From: a virus
Taxonomy: Duplodnaviria > Caudoviricetes
Reading direction: 5' to 3' (one strand)
Length of the DNA stretch: 64,000 nt
Virus record (IMG/VR): IMGVR_UViG_2706796519_000001
Coordinates: 6,271 to 70,270 of that record
Part shown: positions 12,543 to 32,731 of the stretch, in pieces
Layout: each line of letters opens with the position of its first letter
Numbering within the stretch: position 1 is the stretch's first letter
Program-made: the position numbers and the translations under genes
The notes under the pieces: model-generated
Databases searched by the model: none
What the model was told of the DNA's origin: nothing
What the model saw: only the letters and a program-made list of their open reading frames with translations

Positions 12543-12875
12543 ATGGCCCAGATCACGATCGAGGGAAGCATCAGCCCGGCAGCGGGCCTCGCACGCGGCG
12601 AGCGCCGAACGGTCCAGGACACCCCTGATGTTCGTGCCTTTGTCGCGAAGGGGTTCGCGGTGATCGTGGATGAGCGCACAGAGACCGAGCGCGAGGTTGA
12701 CGAGCAGGCGGAGTTCGCCCGCGACGCGCTCGGCGTTCCGGCCCGAAACGCCAGCCGCGACGACTGGGCAGAGTTCCTGGCTCAGCACCCCGGCGGGTTC
12801 GTCACCGAGGGCAAGAACCGCGACCAGCTCATTGCCGAATGGGATGCCTGGGAGCCGACCGTAGCCGCTGAGTAA
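12543..12875 (+). CDS. Small virion-region protein with a helical C-terminal domain
   Basis: GAGGAG SD; 110 aa. Confidence 0.65.
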   Translation: MAQITIEGSISPAAGLARGERRTVQDTPDVRAFVAKGFAVIVDERTETEREVDEQAEFARDALGVPARNASRDDWAEFLAQHPGGFVTEGKNRDQLIAEWDAWEPTVAAE

Positions 12876-13291
12876 TGGCTCGGATCACCGCCCGCGTCGA
12901 GATCAACGAGGCCGGGCTGGAACAGCAGTCCGGCGTCATCCTCCGTCGGAAACATCGCTCGCTCACGCGCCAGATCGCGACCGAGGGACGGGTGCGCGTC
13001 CCGGTGCTCACCGGCAATCTCGGGCGCACGATCGGCGAGCTACCGCAGCGGTACCGCCCGTTCCACGTGGACGGCGGCGTCGAGGCGACCGCCGACTATG
13101 CGGCGGCGGTCCACGAAGGGTCTAGGCCTCACCGCATCGTCGCCCGCCGGGCGGAGGCGCTGCACTTCTGGTGGCACGGTCGCGAGATATTCCGCAAGTC
13201 GGTTTGGCATCCCGGCACTCGATCTCGCCCGTTCCTGCGGAACGCGGGCGAAGCGGTGATTGCTCGCGACCCGCACATCAGCCGGGTGTAG
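12875..13291 (+). CDS. HK97-gp10-like neck/tail completion protein
   Basis: TGNLGRTI...YAAAVHEGS...RPFL motifs. Confidence 0.65.
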   Translation: MARITARVEINEAGLEQQSGVILRRKHRSLTRQIATEGRVRVPVLTGNLGRTIGELPQRYRPFHVDGGVEATADYAAAVHEGSRPHRIVARRAEALHFWWHGREIFRKSVWHPGTRSRPFLRNAGEAVIARDPHISRV

Positions 13292-13344: not shown

Positions 13345-13911
13345 ATGACCACGTTCAACGCTGACGGCACTCGGGAGAAGGCGCATTCGCTGCCCGAGGC
13401 GGAGCCGGACCCCTCGATTCAACTCGAACCGCCTGCTGATCTTGACGATGCGCTCGACGTCGAGACCGACGACACGGCCACCGTCATCGCCGATCTATCG
13501 ACCGACGCGGCGGATGATCCACGGGACACGGTGAAGGCGGAGGTGGTCGAGCCGGAAGCGGTGGGCACCGCGATCGCGCTATCACCTCGGCTCGACGTCT
13601 CGACCATCGAGAAGTGGGACCACGACTGGCTTGAGTTCAAGGGCGACAAGCTCGGCATCCGCGTCCCCACCCGGCAGGCGCTCGCCGCGTTCTCGCTCGC
13701 CTCGGGCAAGTACGTCGACATCGGCGTCAAGAACGACCTCACCGGCCTGTTCATCGCGCGGCATCTCTCGCCGGAGTCCTACGGTCGGGTGTTCTCGCGT
13801 CTGATGGACCCTGACGAGGAGGACTACACCGTGGACACCGTGGGCGAGCTATTCAACGCGATCGTCACGGCCTCGCTGCAGCCCGAGGACAAGGGCGACA
13901 AGCAGGGGTAA
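13345..13911 (+). CDS. Tail assembly chaperone
   Basis: ATG 13345 after GGGAG; directly upstream of the tape measure gene. Confidence 0.7.
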   Translation: MTTFNADGTREKAHSLPEAEPDPSIQLEPPADLDDALDVETDDTATVIADLSTDAADDPRDTVKAEVVEPEAVGTAIALSPRLDVSTIEKWDHDWLEFKGDKLGIRVPTRQALAAFSLASGKYVDIGVKNDLTGLFIARHLSPESYGRVFSRLMDPDEEDYTVDTVGELFNAIVTASLQPEDKGDKQG

Positions 13912-27661: not shown

Positions 27662-28051
27662 ATGGCCCAGGTAGGCATCACCGCGTATCTCGCGAACAAA
27701 TTGCTCGATCACGTGGGCCGCAACGTCGCCTACACTCCGCCCGCGATCGTCTACGCCAAGGCGCACACCGGCATCCCCGGCGCGGCGGGTACCCTCGCCG
27801 CCTCCGCGCAGGCCACCCGTCTTGCCCTCTCGTTTGCCGCAGCGGCGTCCGGCAGCATGTCAGCCAACACAACCCCCGAGTGGACCCTCAACGCGACCGA
27901 GACGATCAGCCACGTGTCGTTCTGGGACAGCCCGACGGCGGGCAACTGCCTCTGGACCGCAGCGGCCTCGGTGTCCAAGGGCGGTGTCTCCGGCGACATC
28001 ATTCGCATCGCGACCGATACGCTGACATTCAGCCCGATCGCGGCAGACTAG
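27662..28051 (+). CDS. Minor tail protein
   Basis: YLANKLLDH...HTGIPG...W motif common in actinophage tail clusters; GAGG SD. Confidence 0.7.
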   Translation: MAQVGITAYLANKLLDHVGRNVAYTPPAIVYAKAHTGIPGAAGTLAASAQATRLALSFAAAASGSMSANTTPEWTLNATETISHVSFWDSPTAGNCLWTAAASVSKGGVSGDIIRIATDTLTFSPIAAD

Positions 28052-28503: not shown

Positions 28504-29133
28504 GTGACCACGCCCACTGTTTGCGTCGCCGAGCACCTGCTGGTCACCGACGCGGGAGAACTCAACCTCGCCCCGTGGTCGGTGCCTCGCAATGTGCTCG
28601 ATGAGATCGCTCAGAGCAGCGGTGACACGACGAAGCTGCTCGCGACCGAGAGCTTGGAGACGGCGCGGCTGCTGATCAACTGGTCGGGCAGTTGGCTCAA
28701 CGACACGCCGGTCGACCACATGGTTCGAGTACAGGTGACGCGCCGTTTCCGACGGTGGGTCACCTCGAACCCGAACGCGGTGCAGTTCCGCGATCGGTGG
28801 TCGAGCGCGATCGACACCGACCCCGAGGTGCCGGTGGTCTCGGGCATCTTCAACTCCCAGACCGGCTCCGCCGGGGACATCGGCACCAACACCGTCGCCG
28901 AGCCCAACCCCGGCAAGTTCTGGCACTGGTGGGGCACCAACACCTCCGACGAGTGGCTGGGACCGGTCGAGCCCGGCCAGCGGTTCAACCTCGCCTACCG
29001 GGCGTACGTGTGGACTCCGCCTCCGTTCTCCAACAACGCCAACAAGAACGCTCCCAGCCATGAGGCGGAGACCGGCTACGCCCGCATCGCGGTCCACGCG
29101 ATGCCCGAGCCGAGCAAGCAGGTGATCGGATGA
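28504..29133 (+). CDS. Minor tail protein
   Basis: 209 aa, Trp-rich beta protein; TAAGCT -10 lies 6 nt upstream. Confidence 0.65.
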   Translation: MTTPTVCVAEHLLVTDAGELNLAPWSVPRNVLDEIAQSSGDTTKLLATESLETARLLINWSGSWLNDTPVDHMVRVQVTRRFRRWVTSNPNAVQFRDRWSSAIDTDPEVPVVSGIFNSQTGSAGDIGTNTVAEPNPGKFWHWWGTNTSDEWLGPVEPGQRFNLAYRAYVWTPPPFSNNANKNAPSHEAETGYARIAVHAMPEPSKQVIG

Positions 29134-29243
29134 TTGCGACGCGACCCTGCCGCTGCGGACGTCGGATGCTCGGCGCGCTGATATGGGGCGGTCTCCGATG
29201 GTTCTGCCCTAGCTGCGAACAAGTCATCGAGGTGATCGGATGA
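29130..29243 (+). CDS. 37-aa Cys-rich mini-protein (CxC...CxxC)
   Basis: Hand-translated MIATRPCRCGRRMLGALIWGGLRWFCPSCEQVIEVIG; ATGA overlaps at both ends; below the ORF-track cutoff. Confidence 0.6.
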   Translation: MIATRPCRCGRRMLGALIWGGLRWFCPSCEQVIEVIG

Positions 29244-29848
29244 GCCTGAAACTCTGCACCTCGGAGTACATGCTCAGCAACGTCAACGGCATCGGCGTCC
29301 GGCGCGGCTGGCTGCCGCGCGTCCTGAGCGAGCAGTTCCTTGAGTCCCAGAAGGACGGCGAGATCAAACTGTCGCCCGACCCGGTAACGATGATCGACGG
29401 CGACGTGAGCTGGCATAACGACGACAACGGCGACCAGATCGTGTTCGTGCTGGTGCACCGCGCTCCGCGCACGATCATCGCGCAGTCGCCCTCGACGGTC
29501 GTGATCCACGATGCGTGGACCAAGCGCGTCGGCACGGCTCCAAGCGCCGATTACCCGAGCGTCGCACAGGACACATTCGGCGGTCGGCTGCAGATCGACC
29601 GTGCCGAGGTCGCGCCGGACGACATCAAGTTCGGGCGGTATTTCCTCGACGGCGACGACTCGCAGGTGTGGGTGCCGATCGGCCTGGTCCCGCAGGGCCA
29701 AGGCTTCCACTTCCGCTACATCGCCTCGGTCCAGACGCCGGGAACGTGGGTCTCGCCGGGCACGAACAGCGACGTGACACCGCGCTGGGAGGCCTACGCA
29801 CGTTGGACGCGCCTGGTGGCGCTCGGATGGCCGGTGGGTTCGCTATGA
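29240..29848 (+). CDS. Minor tail protein
   Basis: 202 aa, ATGA-coupled, begins with a CxSE motif like its neighbours. Confidence 0.65.
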   Translation: MSLKLCTSEYMLSNVNGIGVRRGWLPRVLSEQFLESQKDGEIKLSPDPVTMIDGDVSWHNDDNGDQIVFVLVHRAPRTIIAQSPSTVVIHDAWTKRVGTAPSADYPSVAQDTFGGRLQIDRAEVAPDDIKFGRYFLDGDDSQVWVPIGLVPQGQGFHFRYIASVQTPGTWVSPGTNSDVTPRWEAYARWTRLVALGWPVGSL

Positions 29849-30465
29849 CGGCTCCGATCAACCCCGACCACTTTGAGATCCGGCCTGACGGCTCGATCGC
29901 TCCGCAGCCGTGGATGCAGTGGCGGCACGTCGCCTCGGTCGAGGCCGCGTCCAAGACGGGCAGCTACGCCGTCGTCGGCGGCATCAACAAGAACGACCTC
30001 CTCCACAAGCTGCAGCTGCCGTGGCAGAACAACAGCCCGATCCCCCAGCACTGCTACGGCCTGATCACGCGCGGCGGGTGCCGGGTCTCGCTGCAGGCTC
30101 GCTCGGTCGGGTACCTGCAGGTCACCTCGGGATTCAAGCTCAACGCGCCCGGCGACGCGGGTGACTTGGAGATCGCGAGCCGGTTCGGGTGCGGAGCCGA
30201 CATGGGGCGCGGCGGCACGCTCGCCGTCGGCACCGAGTTCGGGATTATCGAGGAGCGGATGAACAGCGTGACGTTCCCGCTCGCGCCGGAGCGGGCCGGA
30301 TGGCCGGTGATCGAGCCGGGTGACCTGATCACCGCGCGGGTCGAGGTGCGGTTCGTCTCGCAGCAGTGGGAAACGACCAGCATCGACGGCGGCACCTCGG
30401 GCAGCGATTCCAGCTACAACAGCGGCGCAACGCGGCTCGATCTGTTCGCGGTGCCGGTAATCTGA
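29845..30465 (+). CDS. Minor tail protein
   Basis: ATGA overlap at 29845-29848; 206 aa. Confidence 0.65.
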   Translation: MTAPINPDHFEIRPDGSIAPQPWMQWRHVASVEAASKTGSYAVVGGINKNDLLHKLQLPWQNNSPIPQHCYGLITRGGCRVSLQARSVGYLQVTSGFKLNAPGDAGDLEIASRFGCGADMGRGGTLAVGTEFGIIEERMNSVTFPLAPERAGWPVIEPGDLITARVEVRFVSQQWETTSIDGGTSGSDSSYNSGATRLDLFAVPVI

Positions 30466-30488
30466 GGCCATGCCTCGGAGACTGACCA

Positions 30489-30836
30489 ATGGGTTTTGAG
30501 CCGCCTGCCGGATACGTCGACTGCGAAGCCGACGCGGAGGCCTCGCCGCCCAACGCCGGACCCTTCCATGAGATTGACGTGCTCGACGTCGGCGTGATCC
30601 ACGCCCGGCGTCCGCTGCCCAACGCGATACCGGCGCTGAGCAGCGCAGCGAGTCCCAAGGTCTCCGAGATCAATCGTCTCGGTTACCTGAACCTGTTCGT
30701 TCAGAACCACCTGGCCGAGGGCGAGTACGAGGCGCTGCTGGCGCGGATGCTCGACCCTGACGAGGAGGTGCCGCCGGACGCCATGCTGCGGGTCTCCCGC
30801 GCTATCGCGACGGCGGGCACCGCCCGCCCTACCTAG
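30489..30836 (+). CDS. Tail assembly chaperone paralogue (G-like)
   Basis: Aligns by eye with the C-terminal half of 13345-13911 (R.P...A..A.S.A...V...LF...HL...Y...R..DPDEE). Confidence 0.6.
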   Translation: MGFEPPAGYVDCEADAEASPPNAGPFHEIDVLDVGVIHARRPLPNAIPALSSAASPKVSEINRLGYLNLFVQNHLAEGEYEALLARMLDPDEEVPPDAMLRVSRAIATAGTARPT

Positions 30837-30853
30837 CCGTCATCAACCTGGCG

Positions 30854-31177
30854 TTGATGGCGGCGCACAACTGGCGAGCGCTGCGGAGTCGCCTGCAGGA
30901 CAAAGGCATCGCCGACCCGATGGCGATGACGTCGATGCATCACGTGCTCGACGTGATCGAGCAGATGGGCCTCGAATCGGCGGTCCACGGGGCCACGAAA
31001 GAGATCGAGGCCAAGGCCAAGATCAGCGCGTTCTACAACAAGCTCTACGCGCCCGACCCGACCGCCCGCATCATCAACGGCGACGGCTGGCAGCCGCAAC
31101 CTGCCGGGTTCGAGGAGGCCGAAATCGAGGCCTCGTTCGACGCATTCATGTCCGCTGTCAACGCGACCGGCGGCTGA
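30854..31177 (+). CDS. Putative chaperone T-like ORF in the -1 frame of the upstream gene
   Basis: Frame is open from 30761 and overlaps the end of 30489-30836; no SD before 30854. Confidence 0.55.
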   Translation: MMAAHNWRALRSRLQDKGIADPMAMTSMHHVLDVIEQMGLESAVHGATKEIEAKAKISAFYNKLYAPDPTARIINGDGWQPQPAGFEEAEIEASFDAFMSAVNATGG

Positions 31178-31194
31178 GCCGTTATCCTGCCCGT

Positions 31195-31608
31195 ATGACC
31201 ATCGCCAACGTCATGATGGACACCGCGCAGCCGGTCGGCTCGAAACTTGACGATGAGATGATCGCCGAGATCGAGGAGATTGCCCCCGGCGTCCCGCCGG
31301 ACGGCACCATCACCGAGGCCAAGCTGCACGCTCAGGCGGTCTCCCGAGAGAAGATCAAGCCGGGCGCGGTCGACTCGACCATCATCGCCGAAGGCGGCAT
31401 CAAGGCTGTCAACTACGAGTCCAAGAGCGTCGGCGCGACGGCGCTCGCCGATCACGCGGTCGGCGCGCTGCAGGCCGGGACCGGGGTGCCGACGACGTAC
31501 GACTTCGCGGGCAACCCGATCGAGGACAGGCGCGTGTATTGCACCGCTGCCCAGTACGCCTCGCTGGCCGAGAAGGATCCCAACACCGAATACCTGGTCA
31601 CTGCCTGA
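31195..31608 (+). CDS. Tail-fibre adaptor-like minor tail protein
   Basis: C-terminal CTAAQYASLAEKDPNTEYLV motif; TATCCT -10 lies 6 nt upstream. Confidence 0.6.
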   Translation: MTIANVMMDTAQPVGSKLDDEMIAEIEEIAPGVPPDGTITEAKLHAQAVSREKIKPGAVDSTIIAEGGIKAVNYESKSVGATALADHAVGALQAGTGVPTTYDFAGNPIEDRRVYCTAAQYASLAEKDPNTEYLVTA

Positions 31609-31609
31609 C

Positions 31610-32731
31610 ATGCCCGGCTATCGCGCCTCCGCCCCGATCATCGCCCGATACCACGGGGCGACCCCGATCGAACGGGTGTATCGCGGCGAGACCCTGGTGT
31701 GGTCCCGCTCGGTCATCCACGACGGGTTCGACCTCGCGGGCATCTTGGAGCGGTGGATCAACGAACTCCGCTCCGGCGACCTCGGCGCGCTCTGCACCGA
31801 CATCACCGGCACCCTCACCGACGGCCTCGGCAACGTCATCGGCACGACCGTCGACTACGTGGAGGGCGGCGTCAACGGCCTCGGCAAGCTCGTCAACAAC
31901 GCGGGCACCTCGCTCGCCGACGCTTACTGCGGGGCGTGGGGCGGGTCGGTCGCACCGGACGGCCTGATTGGTCTCGTCAACGGCATCCCGATCTTCGGGC
32001 CGATCCTCGGCGACTGGCTGAGCGGCGAGTTCGACATCGAATCCATCATCGGCCAGATTCCGGTCGTCTCCGAGATCGGGCGGCTGATCGGCCTGTTCCC
32101 CGACGTCGAGGGCAATCTGCTCGACCCGCTCAACTACGTCGTCAACGCGGCGGGTGAGGTCATCGGCGTGCTCTCCTGCGGCGAGTTCAAGCCGACCGGC
32201 GGCGTGTTCGAGGGCGTGTGCTTCGTCATCGGCTCGATCGGTAACGCGGCGCGGATGTTGGTGCCGGACGGGCTGATGAGCCTCAACAAGCAGGTCTCCC
32301 GCGTCCGGCATGAGACCGTGCTGCCCGGCGACGACGGGTTCCTTGAGACGCAGATCGCGGAACTGGGAGACCCCGGCTATGTGACTCAGCTGTTCCGCCG
32401 GTACGCGAACGACGGCTCCGGCGCTCGCGGGGTCGGCCTCGACTTCCGCAACTCTCAGGCCTCGATCGTGCGCCGCGTTGCGTCGGCTGACGTGCTGGTC
32501 GCGCCGGACGTCGCAAGTTTCGGGCCGGGCGACACGTTCCGCCTCGACCAACTCGGCAACGTCCACAGCCTGACCAAGAACGGCGAGCCGGTCATCGCGT
32601 GGAACGACTCGACCGGGACGGCGGCGAGCGGCGCGACCAACCGCAGCGTGGCGATGATGATGCAATCGGCGAAGGAACTGAGCGGGTCTCGCCTGTTCAG
32701 CCCTTCGCTCAACTACGTCGACGCCGCTTAG
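31610..32731 (+). CDS. Minor tail protein (putative receptor-binding)
   Basis: ATG 31610; N-terminal IERVYRGETLVW motif; beta-rich C-terminal domain. Confidence 0.65.
   Translation: MPGYRASAPIIARYHGATPIERVYRGETLVWSRSVIHDGFDLAGILERWINELRSGDLGALCTDITGTLTDGLGNVIGTTVDYVEGGVNGLGKLVNNAGTSLADAYCGAWGGSVAPDGLIGLVNGIPIFGPILGDWLSGEFDIESIIGQIPVVSEIGRLIGLFPDVEGNLLDPLNYVVNAAGEVIGVLSCGEFKPTGGVFEGVCFVIGSIGNAARMLVPDGLMSLNKQVSRVRHETVLPGDDGFLETQIAELGDPGYVTQLFRRYANDGSGARGVGLDFRNSQASIVRRVASADVLVAPDVASFGPGDTFRLDQLGNVHSLTKNGEPVIAWNDSTGTAASGATNRSVAMMMQSAKELSGSRLFSPSLNYVDAA

Follow-up and report, generated by a model that had tools for sequence, protein, structure and literature searches.

A candidate -1 ribosomal frameshift in a tape-measure-distal tail assembly chaperone gene of Cluster B mycobacteriophages

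Introduction

The G/GT frameshift is a long-established trait of dsDNA phages with long tails. In phage lambda its products are gpG and gpGT, and the tail chaperone frameshift is described as conserved (Levin, Hendrix and Casjens 1993; Xu, Hendrix and Duda 2004; as cited in PMC5009743). The lambda gene lies between the major tail and tape measure genes and combines a short chaperone ORF with a -1 ORF that overlaps it and lacks its own start, the shift occurring at a heptamer such as G_GGA_AAG. Z_ZZN tetranucleotides, for example A_AAG, are recognised as minimal -1 shift sites (PMC5009743), at which one tRNA re-pairs on the overlapping -1 codon close to a 3' stimulator. A further described case is dnaX of Escherichia coli, where a -1 slip on the heptamer A_AAA_AAG, stimulated by a downstream stem-loop and an upstream Shine-Dalgarno-like element, gives the tau and gamma proteins.

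Here we analyse a 64,000-nucleotide stretch of viral DNA (hereafter the window), in which two ORFs, 30489-30836 (G) and 30857-31177 (T), are read in different frames. On the evidence of sequence comparison, we consider it highly likely that they form one recoded gene with a real -1 ribosomal frameshift and a predicted G-T fusion product. As in lambda, a short ORF homologous to chaperones is overlapped by a -1 ORF without its own start, two products (here predicted) would have a common N-terminus, and the frame relation is kept among relatives. Unlike in lambda, the gene is found about 16.5 kb past the tape measure start, the classical position is taken by a second, non-shifting paralogue, the slip site is the tetranucleotide C_CCU, and many homologues are plain in-frame fusions. 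The site is similar to the minimal Z_ZZN sites in its predicted single re-pairing tRNA and putative nearby 3' stimulator, but differs from the A_AAG type in that C_CCU is read by a Pro-tRNA. It would have in common with dnaX the -1 slip, the downstream stem-loop, the short spacer and two proteins with a common N-terminus; in contrast, the dnaX shift yields the shorter product, and no upstream Shine-Dalgarno-like stimulator was seen at the window site. The locus is very probably of the G/GT type, in a displaced position, with a non-shifting paralogue and a minimal slip site.

Cluster B is among the largest mycobacteriophage groups. Two genome announcements (2023 and 2025; PMC10793310, PMC12352053) report B1 phages to be without a tail chaperone frameshift, and a 2025 description of a B2 phage lists one chaperone only. 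According to the PRFect paper, about one third of SEA-PHAGES genomes carry no annotated frameshift; which ones is not resolved there. In accessible (non-subscription) texts we found no published description of a frameshift in Rosebush or Cluster B or for DUF7240, and no documented case of C_CCU as a utilised -1 shift site. A T homologue occurs in 519 phage records. The annotation of 19 records leaves the pair unnamed (hypothetical or bare gp numbers), Dori having one hypothetical ORF, and in GenBank records up to 2025 both genes are still hypothetical.

Results

Locus layout

Over the region 30000-32000, the window matches Mycobacterium phage Rich at 98.7% identity; for Acadian, Reprobate and further Acadianvirus phages the identity is 85-91%. 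Because of these identities, we assign the window to a Cluster B (subcluster-B5-type) mycobacteriophage. The counterparts of G and T are gp37 and gp38 in Rich and gp38 and gp39 in Acadian, all of them annotated 'hypothetical protein'. The features of the locus are given in Table 1.

Table 1. Coordinates of the chaperone paralogues, the candidate recoding signals and the tape measure gene in the window
Feature	Position	Strand	Remarks
Tape-measure-proximal chaperone paralogue, 188 aa, acidic N-terminal extension	13345..13911	+	PF23781 E 1e-40; PHROG 1118 'tail assembly chaperone' E 1e-75
Tape measure protein gene, 2003 aa	13940..19951	+	From the ORF list; annotated tape measure in Rich and Acadian
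Shine-Dalgarno GGAG of the G ORF	30477..30480	+	8 nt ahead of ATG 30489; read from the sequence
G ORF, 115 aa, zero-frame product, second Phage_TAC_16 paralogue (= Rich gp37)	30489..30836	+	PF23781 E 3e-39
Candidate -1 slip site C_CCU	30827..30830	+	Pro-tRNA would move from CCU (30828-30830) to CCC (30827-29)
T-frame coding segment, 115 codons and stop, read after the predicted slip	30830..31177	+	DUF7240 (PF23888 E 1e-43); encloses Rich gp38 (30857-31177)
Putative stimulatory hairpin	30836..30864	+	Stem 30836-30847/30853-30864, loop 30848-30852; covariation

In Rich, Acadian and the window, the tail gene block has the pair at its far end, with three DUF7172 paralogues upstream and a fibre-like gene and a minor tail gene downstream. 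It does not lie between the major tail and tape measure genes, the major tail gene being upstream of the tape measure in the near-identical phage Rich, and the G start is about 17 kb from the place expected for a chaperone gene.

Two chaperone paralogues

The first-pass annotation had aligned the 115-aa G product by eye with the chaperone ahead of the tape measure gene, and the two proteins are indeed homologous: BLASTP aligns them with 32% identity over 71 residues (E 1e-7), and both match PF23781 (Phage_TAC_16). The proximal paralogue ends 29 nt ahead of the tape measure start, and its homologues are named tail assembly chaperone, none of them carrying PF23888 (DUF7240). The same annotation reported no T ORF for this copy. 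We looked for such a partner and rejected it, as stops close both alternative frames there; the proximal paralogue is the G part only.

The T product, taken from 30857, matches PF23888 with 148 bits against a gathering cut-off of 27. The PHROG 941 profile (233 positions) is covered by G at 2-117 and by T at 127-230, and a profile that spans both implies that single-chain versions must exist; the family merges the two halves owing to single-ORF members such as Dori gp35. Scores of both products are far above the family cut-offs of PF23781, PF23888, PHROG 915 and PHROG 941. These entries leave the T half without a function and do not mention that most members would need a frameshift.

All five further genomes that we tested, four of them with an in-frame form of the distal gene, have two Phage_TAC_16 genes about 16-18 kb apart. 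The earlier proposal of a G/G-T pair relocated by about 17 kb is right as to the distal position, but 'relocated' is too strong for a phage group with two paralogues, and among the data examined there is no sign of a pair having moved off the tape measure gene. On these comparisons, the distal gene has two domains, is widespread and occurs either as a single ORF or in a form split by -1.

Frame relation in relatives and natural fusions

We compared 46 loci. Apart from the window, these are 32 IMG/VR contigs, a Mycobacterium abscessus prophage, the Gordonia phage Sisko, the Skermania phage SPI1, Dori, GodPhather and GenBank phages of subclusters B1-B5. The T frame equals the G frame minus one in 40 of them, including B1-B5, the M. 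abscessus prophage and Gordonia and Skermania phages. The remaining six are single in-frame ORFs, with the junction ...GTARP-Y-x-A-V... at the same residue as the split. These six in-frame forms are five loci (L005, which is Dori, L039, L041, L043 and L044) and the protein P0005, a fused protein from Logan; L039 is the contig of the JGI fused protein P0006. The GTARP-Y junction is exactly the product that would be expected if the slip led from CCU onto CCC, the codon overlapping it, and the junction peptide predicted by the first-pass annotation (...GTARPYLAVINL...) agrees with that of these natural single-ORF homologues. The junction DNA of the in-frame forms reads CGC CCC TAC, AGG CCC TAC, CGC CCG TAC or CGC CCC TAT. 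A sequencing error, in the form of a miscounted C run, was considered as their source and rejected, as the codons are not simply those with one extra C.

A search of 1.84 billion representative proteins, with one fused form as the query, placed 55 fused (about 200-240 aa), 50 G-only and 43 T-only clusters among the best 150. The best conserved stretch of the family is WGTARPY.AV..L....HW, and the frame break falls inside it, which means that a conserved motif is cut and not a linker. In a tree of the T part, in-frame and split states are interleaved, the fused L039 being nested among split forms. At least eight state changes are forced by well-supported branches; the full count of 26 is an upper estimate, as some of the database proteins counted as 'split' could be truncated genes.

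Alternative frames that stay open over long distances are frequent in the G+C-rich DNA of the window. The -1 ORF is nevertheless not a chance ORF, because of its homology, the conservation of its frame in relatives and the natural fusions.

Some of the five in-frame loci keep the hairpin described below together with a C_CCC run. A -1 slip in these forms could in principle give a short product.

The slip site

The sequence at 30825-30836 is CGC CCT ACC TAG, and after CCT the -1 frame reads P-Y-L-A-V-I-N-L-A-L-M, as the first-pass annotation had it when it proposed a CCT-to-CCC slip here. Its description of the site as non-canonical is also accurate. The X_XXY_YYZ pattern is not matched by C_CGC_CCU or C_CCU_ACC, and only the tetranucleotide C_CCU, a Z_ZZN site, fits. 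Re-pairing from CCU to CCC would keep all pairs for a Pro-tRNA, as expected of a shift-prone site. Against a frameshift, an Arg-tRNA would re-pair poorly (CGC to CCG) if both tRNAs shifted.

Conservation at the site is strict. In 39 of the 40 split loci the site reads CGCCCTAC without variation; SPI1, the fortieth, has CGCCCTTT. CGCCCT is common to all 40; it continues as CGC-CCT-TT in SPI1 and as CGC-CCT-AC in the others. The CCCTAC junction, whose conservation in relatives was the point to be checked, is thus kept together with the -1 overlap in every split locus except SPI1, where the overlap alone is kept. Entropy is zero at the wobble bases of both CGC and CCT, compared with 0.86-1.42 bits at wobble positions nearby. 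In CCT, the T is fixed because it is part of the T-frame Tyr codon. The C of CGC, in contrast, is fixed without a coding reason: the base ahead of CCU is C in 40 of 40 split loci though any base would keep Arg, and it is the base that re-pairing from CCU to CCC needs.

SPI1, a Skermania phage (L012, 1463-1520), has the canonical heptamer C_CCU_UUU at the homologous site, with Phe in place of Tyr after Pro, as in some fused homologues. Its downstream sequence differs, and a strong structure (-31.8 kcal/mol over 51 nt) begins 6 nt past the heptamer.

The downstream hairpin

A 12-bp stem with a 5-nt loop begins 5 nt after CCU, and the annotated T start (ATG 30857-30859) is inside its 3' arm. A structure 5-9 nt downstream of the site that is backed by covariation is what -1 stimulation calls for, and across 32 distinct sequences 95.6% of the stem cells are paired, with compensatory changes at six of the 12 pairs. 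None of 500 shuffles reaches these values, slid registers pair at 20-60%, and RNAalifold independently finds the identical stem. The stem pair formed by the wobble positions of two Ala codons is G-C in 20 sequences and C-G in 12; it is never broken, and the swaps have no exception. The hairpin alone has a free energy of -20.7 kcal/mol in the window and about -20 kcal/mol in nearly all split forms, and its 61-nt context in the window has a z score of -4.6 against shuffles. On the general model of -1 shifting, with CCU in the A site, the 5-nt spacer would put the stem at the usual distance.

Against a frameshift, hairpins of -17 to -20 kcal/mol are also kept by some in-frame homologues, and the pairing may therefore be due in part to the protein sequence. 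The mean energy is -15.5 kcal/mol for in-frame forms (five sequences) and -20.0 kcal/mol for split forms.

The C run at the break, and the many interconversions of in-frame and split states on the tree, would also be compatible with a break that is mended by transcriptional slippage or tolerated as a defect in a decaying gene. We consider this extremely improbable. Known RNA polymerase slippage tracts are far longer than three C, and the downstream RNA structure fits ribosomal shifting rather than slippage during transcription. Purifying selection acts on both halves in every locus examined, out of the 519 phage records with a T homologue, and the motif does not vary in split forms.

In the window, the fold of the single sequence adds a candidate outer helix (30821-30829/30872-30880) that would pair the slip region with sequence past the hairpin, for a total of -31.7 kcal/mol. 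No Rfam family was found within 30400-31300.

Translation of the T frame

The -1 frame stays open over 30761-31177, of which 76 nt overlap with G. Its first possible starts are TTG 30854 and ATG 30857; no start codon occurs in this frame between 30761 and 30854, and no Shine-Dalgarno sequence within 20 nt before 30857. The open frame and the missing Shine-Dalgarno had both been reported in the first-pass annotation and are found at these positions. A second ORF thus overlaps the first in an alternative frame without translation signals of its own.

Ahead of the annotated ATG, ten T-frame residues (PY.AVI.L..) follow the slip site, and they are kept in all split loci. The change of frame is also visible in the column entropy of 32 distinct sequences. 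Before the slip site, the G-frame third positions vary most (0.80 bits vs 0 and 0.22), and from the slip site on it is the T-frame third positions (0.79 bits), with the T-frame second positions lowest. The latter is the pattern of the undisputed T coding region, and the switch occurs exactly at the slip site.

These data bear directly on the reading of G and T as two ordinary genes, in which T would be translated from ATG 30857 or TTG 30854 by coupling or re-initiation after G, with no fusion product. GenBank annotates all relatives examined in this way, and two genome announcements report no frameshift in B1 phages (PMC10793310, PMC12352053). In B1 and B4, the G stop and the T ATG overlap as TGATG, an arrangement typical of translational coupling, and a separate T product is possible there. 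However, T has no Shine-Dalgarno sequence, and a hairpin of about -20 kcal/mol contains its ATG in the 3' arm. The start is moreover missing at that position in several relatives, which have ACG (GodPhather), CTG or TTG (Pipefish, Bernardo and L042) or ATC (Sisko). The conserved residues and the T-frame periodicity both extend upstream of the ATG, and the 55 in-frame fused clusters indicate that the halves work as one chain, with the break in the most conserved motif. We therefore regard independent initiation at 30854 or 30857 as unlikely, and the two-gene reading as a whole as quite improbable.

Proposed mechanism

We infer the slip itself from the homology, the frame relation, the invariant motif, the covarying hairpin, the in-frame fusions and the periodicity switch reported above. 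Ribosomes would start at ATG 30489, and the majority would terminate at TAG 30834 to give a 115-aa G-type tail assembly chaperone. In a minority, the Pro-tRNA on CCU (30828-30830) would slip one base back and re-pair on the overlapping CCC, promoted by the 12-bp hairpin 5 nt downstream. The shifted ribosomes would then read the -1 frame from TAC 30830 to TGA 31175, giving a fusion of about 229 aa (114 + 115 residues) with Phage_TAC_16 and DUF7240 domains, whose predicted junction spans GTARPYLAVINLALMAAHNWR.

By analogy with lambda gpG/gpGT, the fusion may act in tail assembly jointly with the non-shifting paralogue ahead of the tape measure gene. We propose this tail role from homology and from that analogy.

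Structure models and the role of the fusion

A model of a fused homologue, built with a 60-sequence alignment, is one confident body (pLDDT 92.9, pTM 0.83), in which the junction is the start of a helix. Its matches in BFVD cover both halves and are full-length proteins of about 200 aa annotated as tail assembly chaperones of actinophages: Lilbeanie (210 columns, TM 0.54/0.57, E 2e-4), SilentRX and Phendrix. A sequence search of solved structures with the fused homologue gave nothing meaningful, and Foldseek against the PDB gave no match at E 0.001 or better.

The AF2 model of the window G ORF has a pLDDT of 87.7. Compared with 48,161 solved chains, it ranks 3fgx first (Z 7.5, 83 aligned, rmsd 3.1), the HK97 tail assembly chaperone 2ob9 second (Z 5.5, 80 aligned, rmsd 4.2) and YqbN 3klu third (Z 5.2, 80 aligned, rmsd 4.3). 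These matches of the model to solved chaperones (Z 5.2-7.5) are modest and would only back up the Pfam assignment: G is recognised as a tail assembly chaperone through PF23781, the fold giving weaker support. The T half, taken as part of a longer chain, has no convincing match among solved chains.

The frameshift could also be real while the G/G-T chaperone serves another part of the tail, such as the DUF7172 trio or a fibre or tip, leaving the tape measure to the proximal paralogue alone. The pair does stand at the end of the tail block, after three DUF7172 genes and before fibre-like and minor tail genes, and the proximal paralogue holds the classical position. However, the neighbours vary: in GodPhather the pair is directly followed by lysin A, and in SPI1 it is between a reverse-strand ribonucleotide reductase gene and lysis genes, away from tail genes. 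In addition, the full-length model is similar in both halves to annotated actinophage chaperones of the long-form (G-T) length. We consider such a role unlikely.

In genomes with the in-frame form, normal termination would give no short distal product, which suggests that the proximal paralogue may supply the G role. Extending this, we speculate that the distal gene is an evolutionary toggle, in which one conserved Pro-Tyr pair has switched repeatedly between in-frame fusion and -1 split by one-base changes. G-T would then be essential, the proximal paralogue would be the abundant 'G', the short distal product a by-product, and the frameshift a tunable control of the G-T dose. We offer this as a tentative possibility, on balance doubtful; if true, the logic of lambda G/GT would be divided between two genes.

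Discussion

If the proposed frameshift is real, it is present in Cluster B phages but elsewhere in the genome than expected, and their annotations would be corrected accordingly. DUF7240 would gain a role, and the generality of the G/GT rule would be supported. The family, which combines a minimal C_CCU site and hairpin, one canonical heptamer and many in-frame fusions, offers a natural test set for why phages frameshift. Such genes would escape prediction tools whose training relies on heptamers and on a position next to the tape measure gene.

Several neighbouring genes of the window are also worth recording. Tandem DUF7172 (PHROG 282) paralogues are found at 28504-29133, 29240-29848 and 29845-30465, directly 5' of the G ORF; Dori, Rosebush and Pipefish, among other relatives, have a protein of about 430-450 aa in place of this triplet. 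Rich (gp24) and Acadian (gp25) annotate the 138-aa protein at 12875-13291 as 'tail assembly chaperone'. Pfam yields no match for it, it matches PHROG 5 'tail completion or Neck1 protein' (E 5e-14), and its GenBank name is probably wrong. The 129-aa protein at 27662-28051 is labelled 'head protein' by RefSeq and PHROG 240, and matches Pfam Gp80 (podophage GP4 fibre I protein) with E 5e-33.
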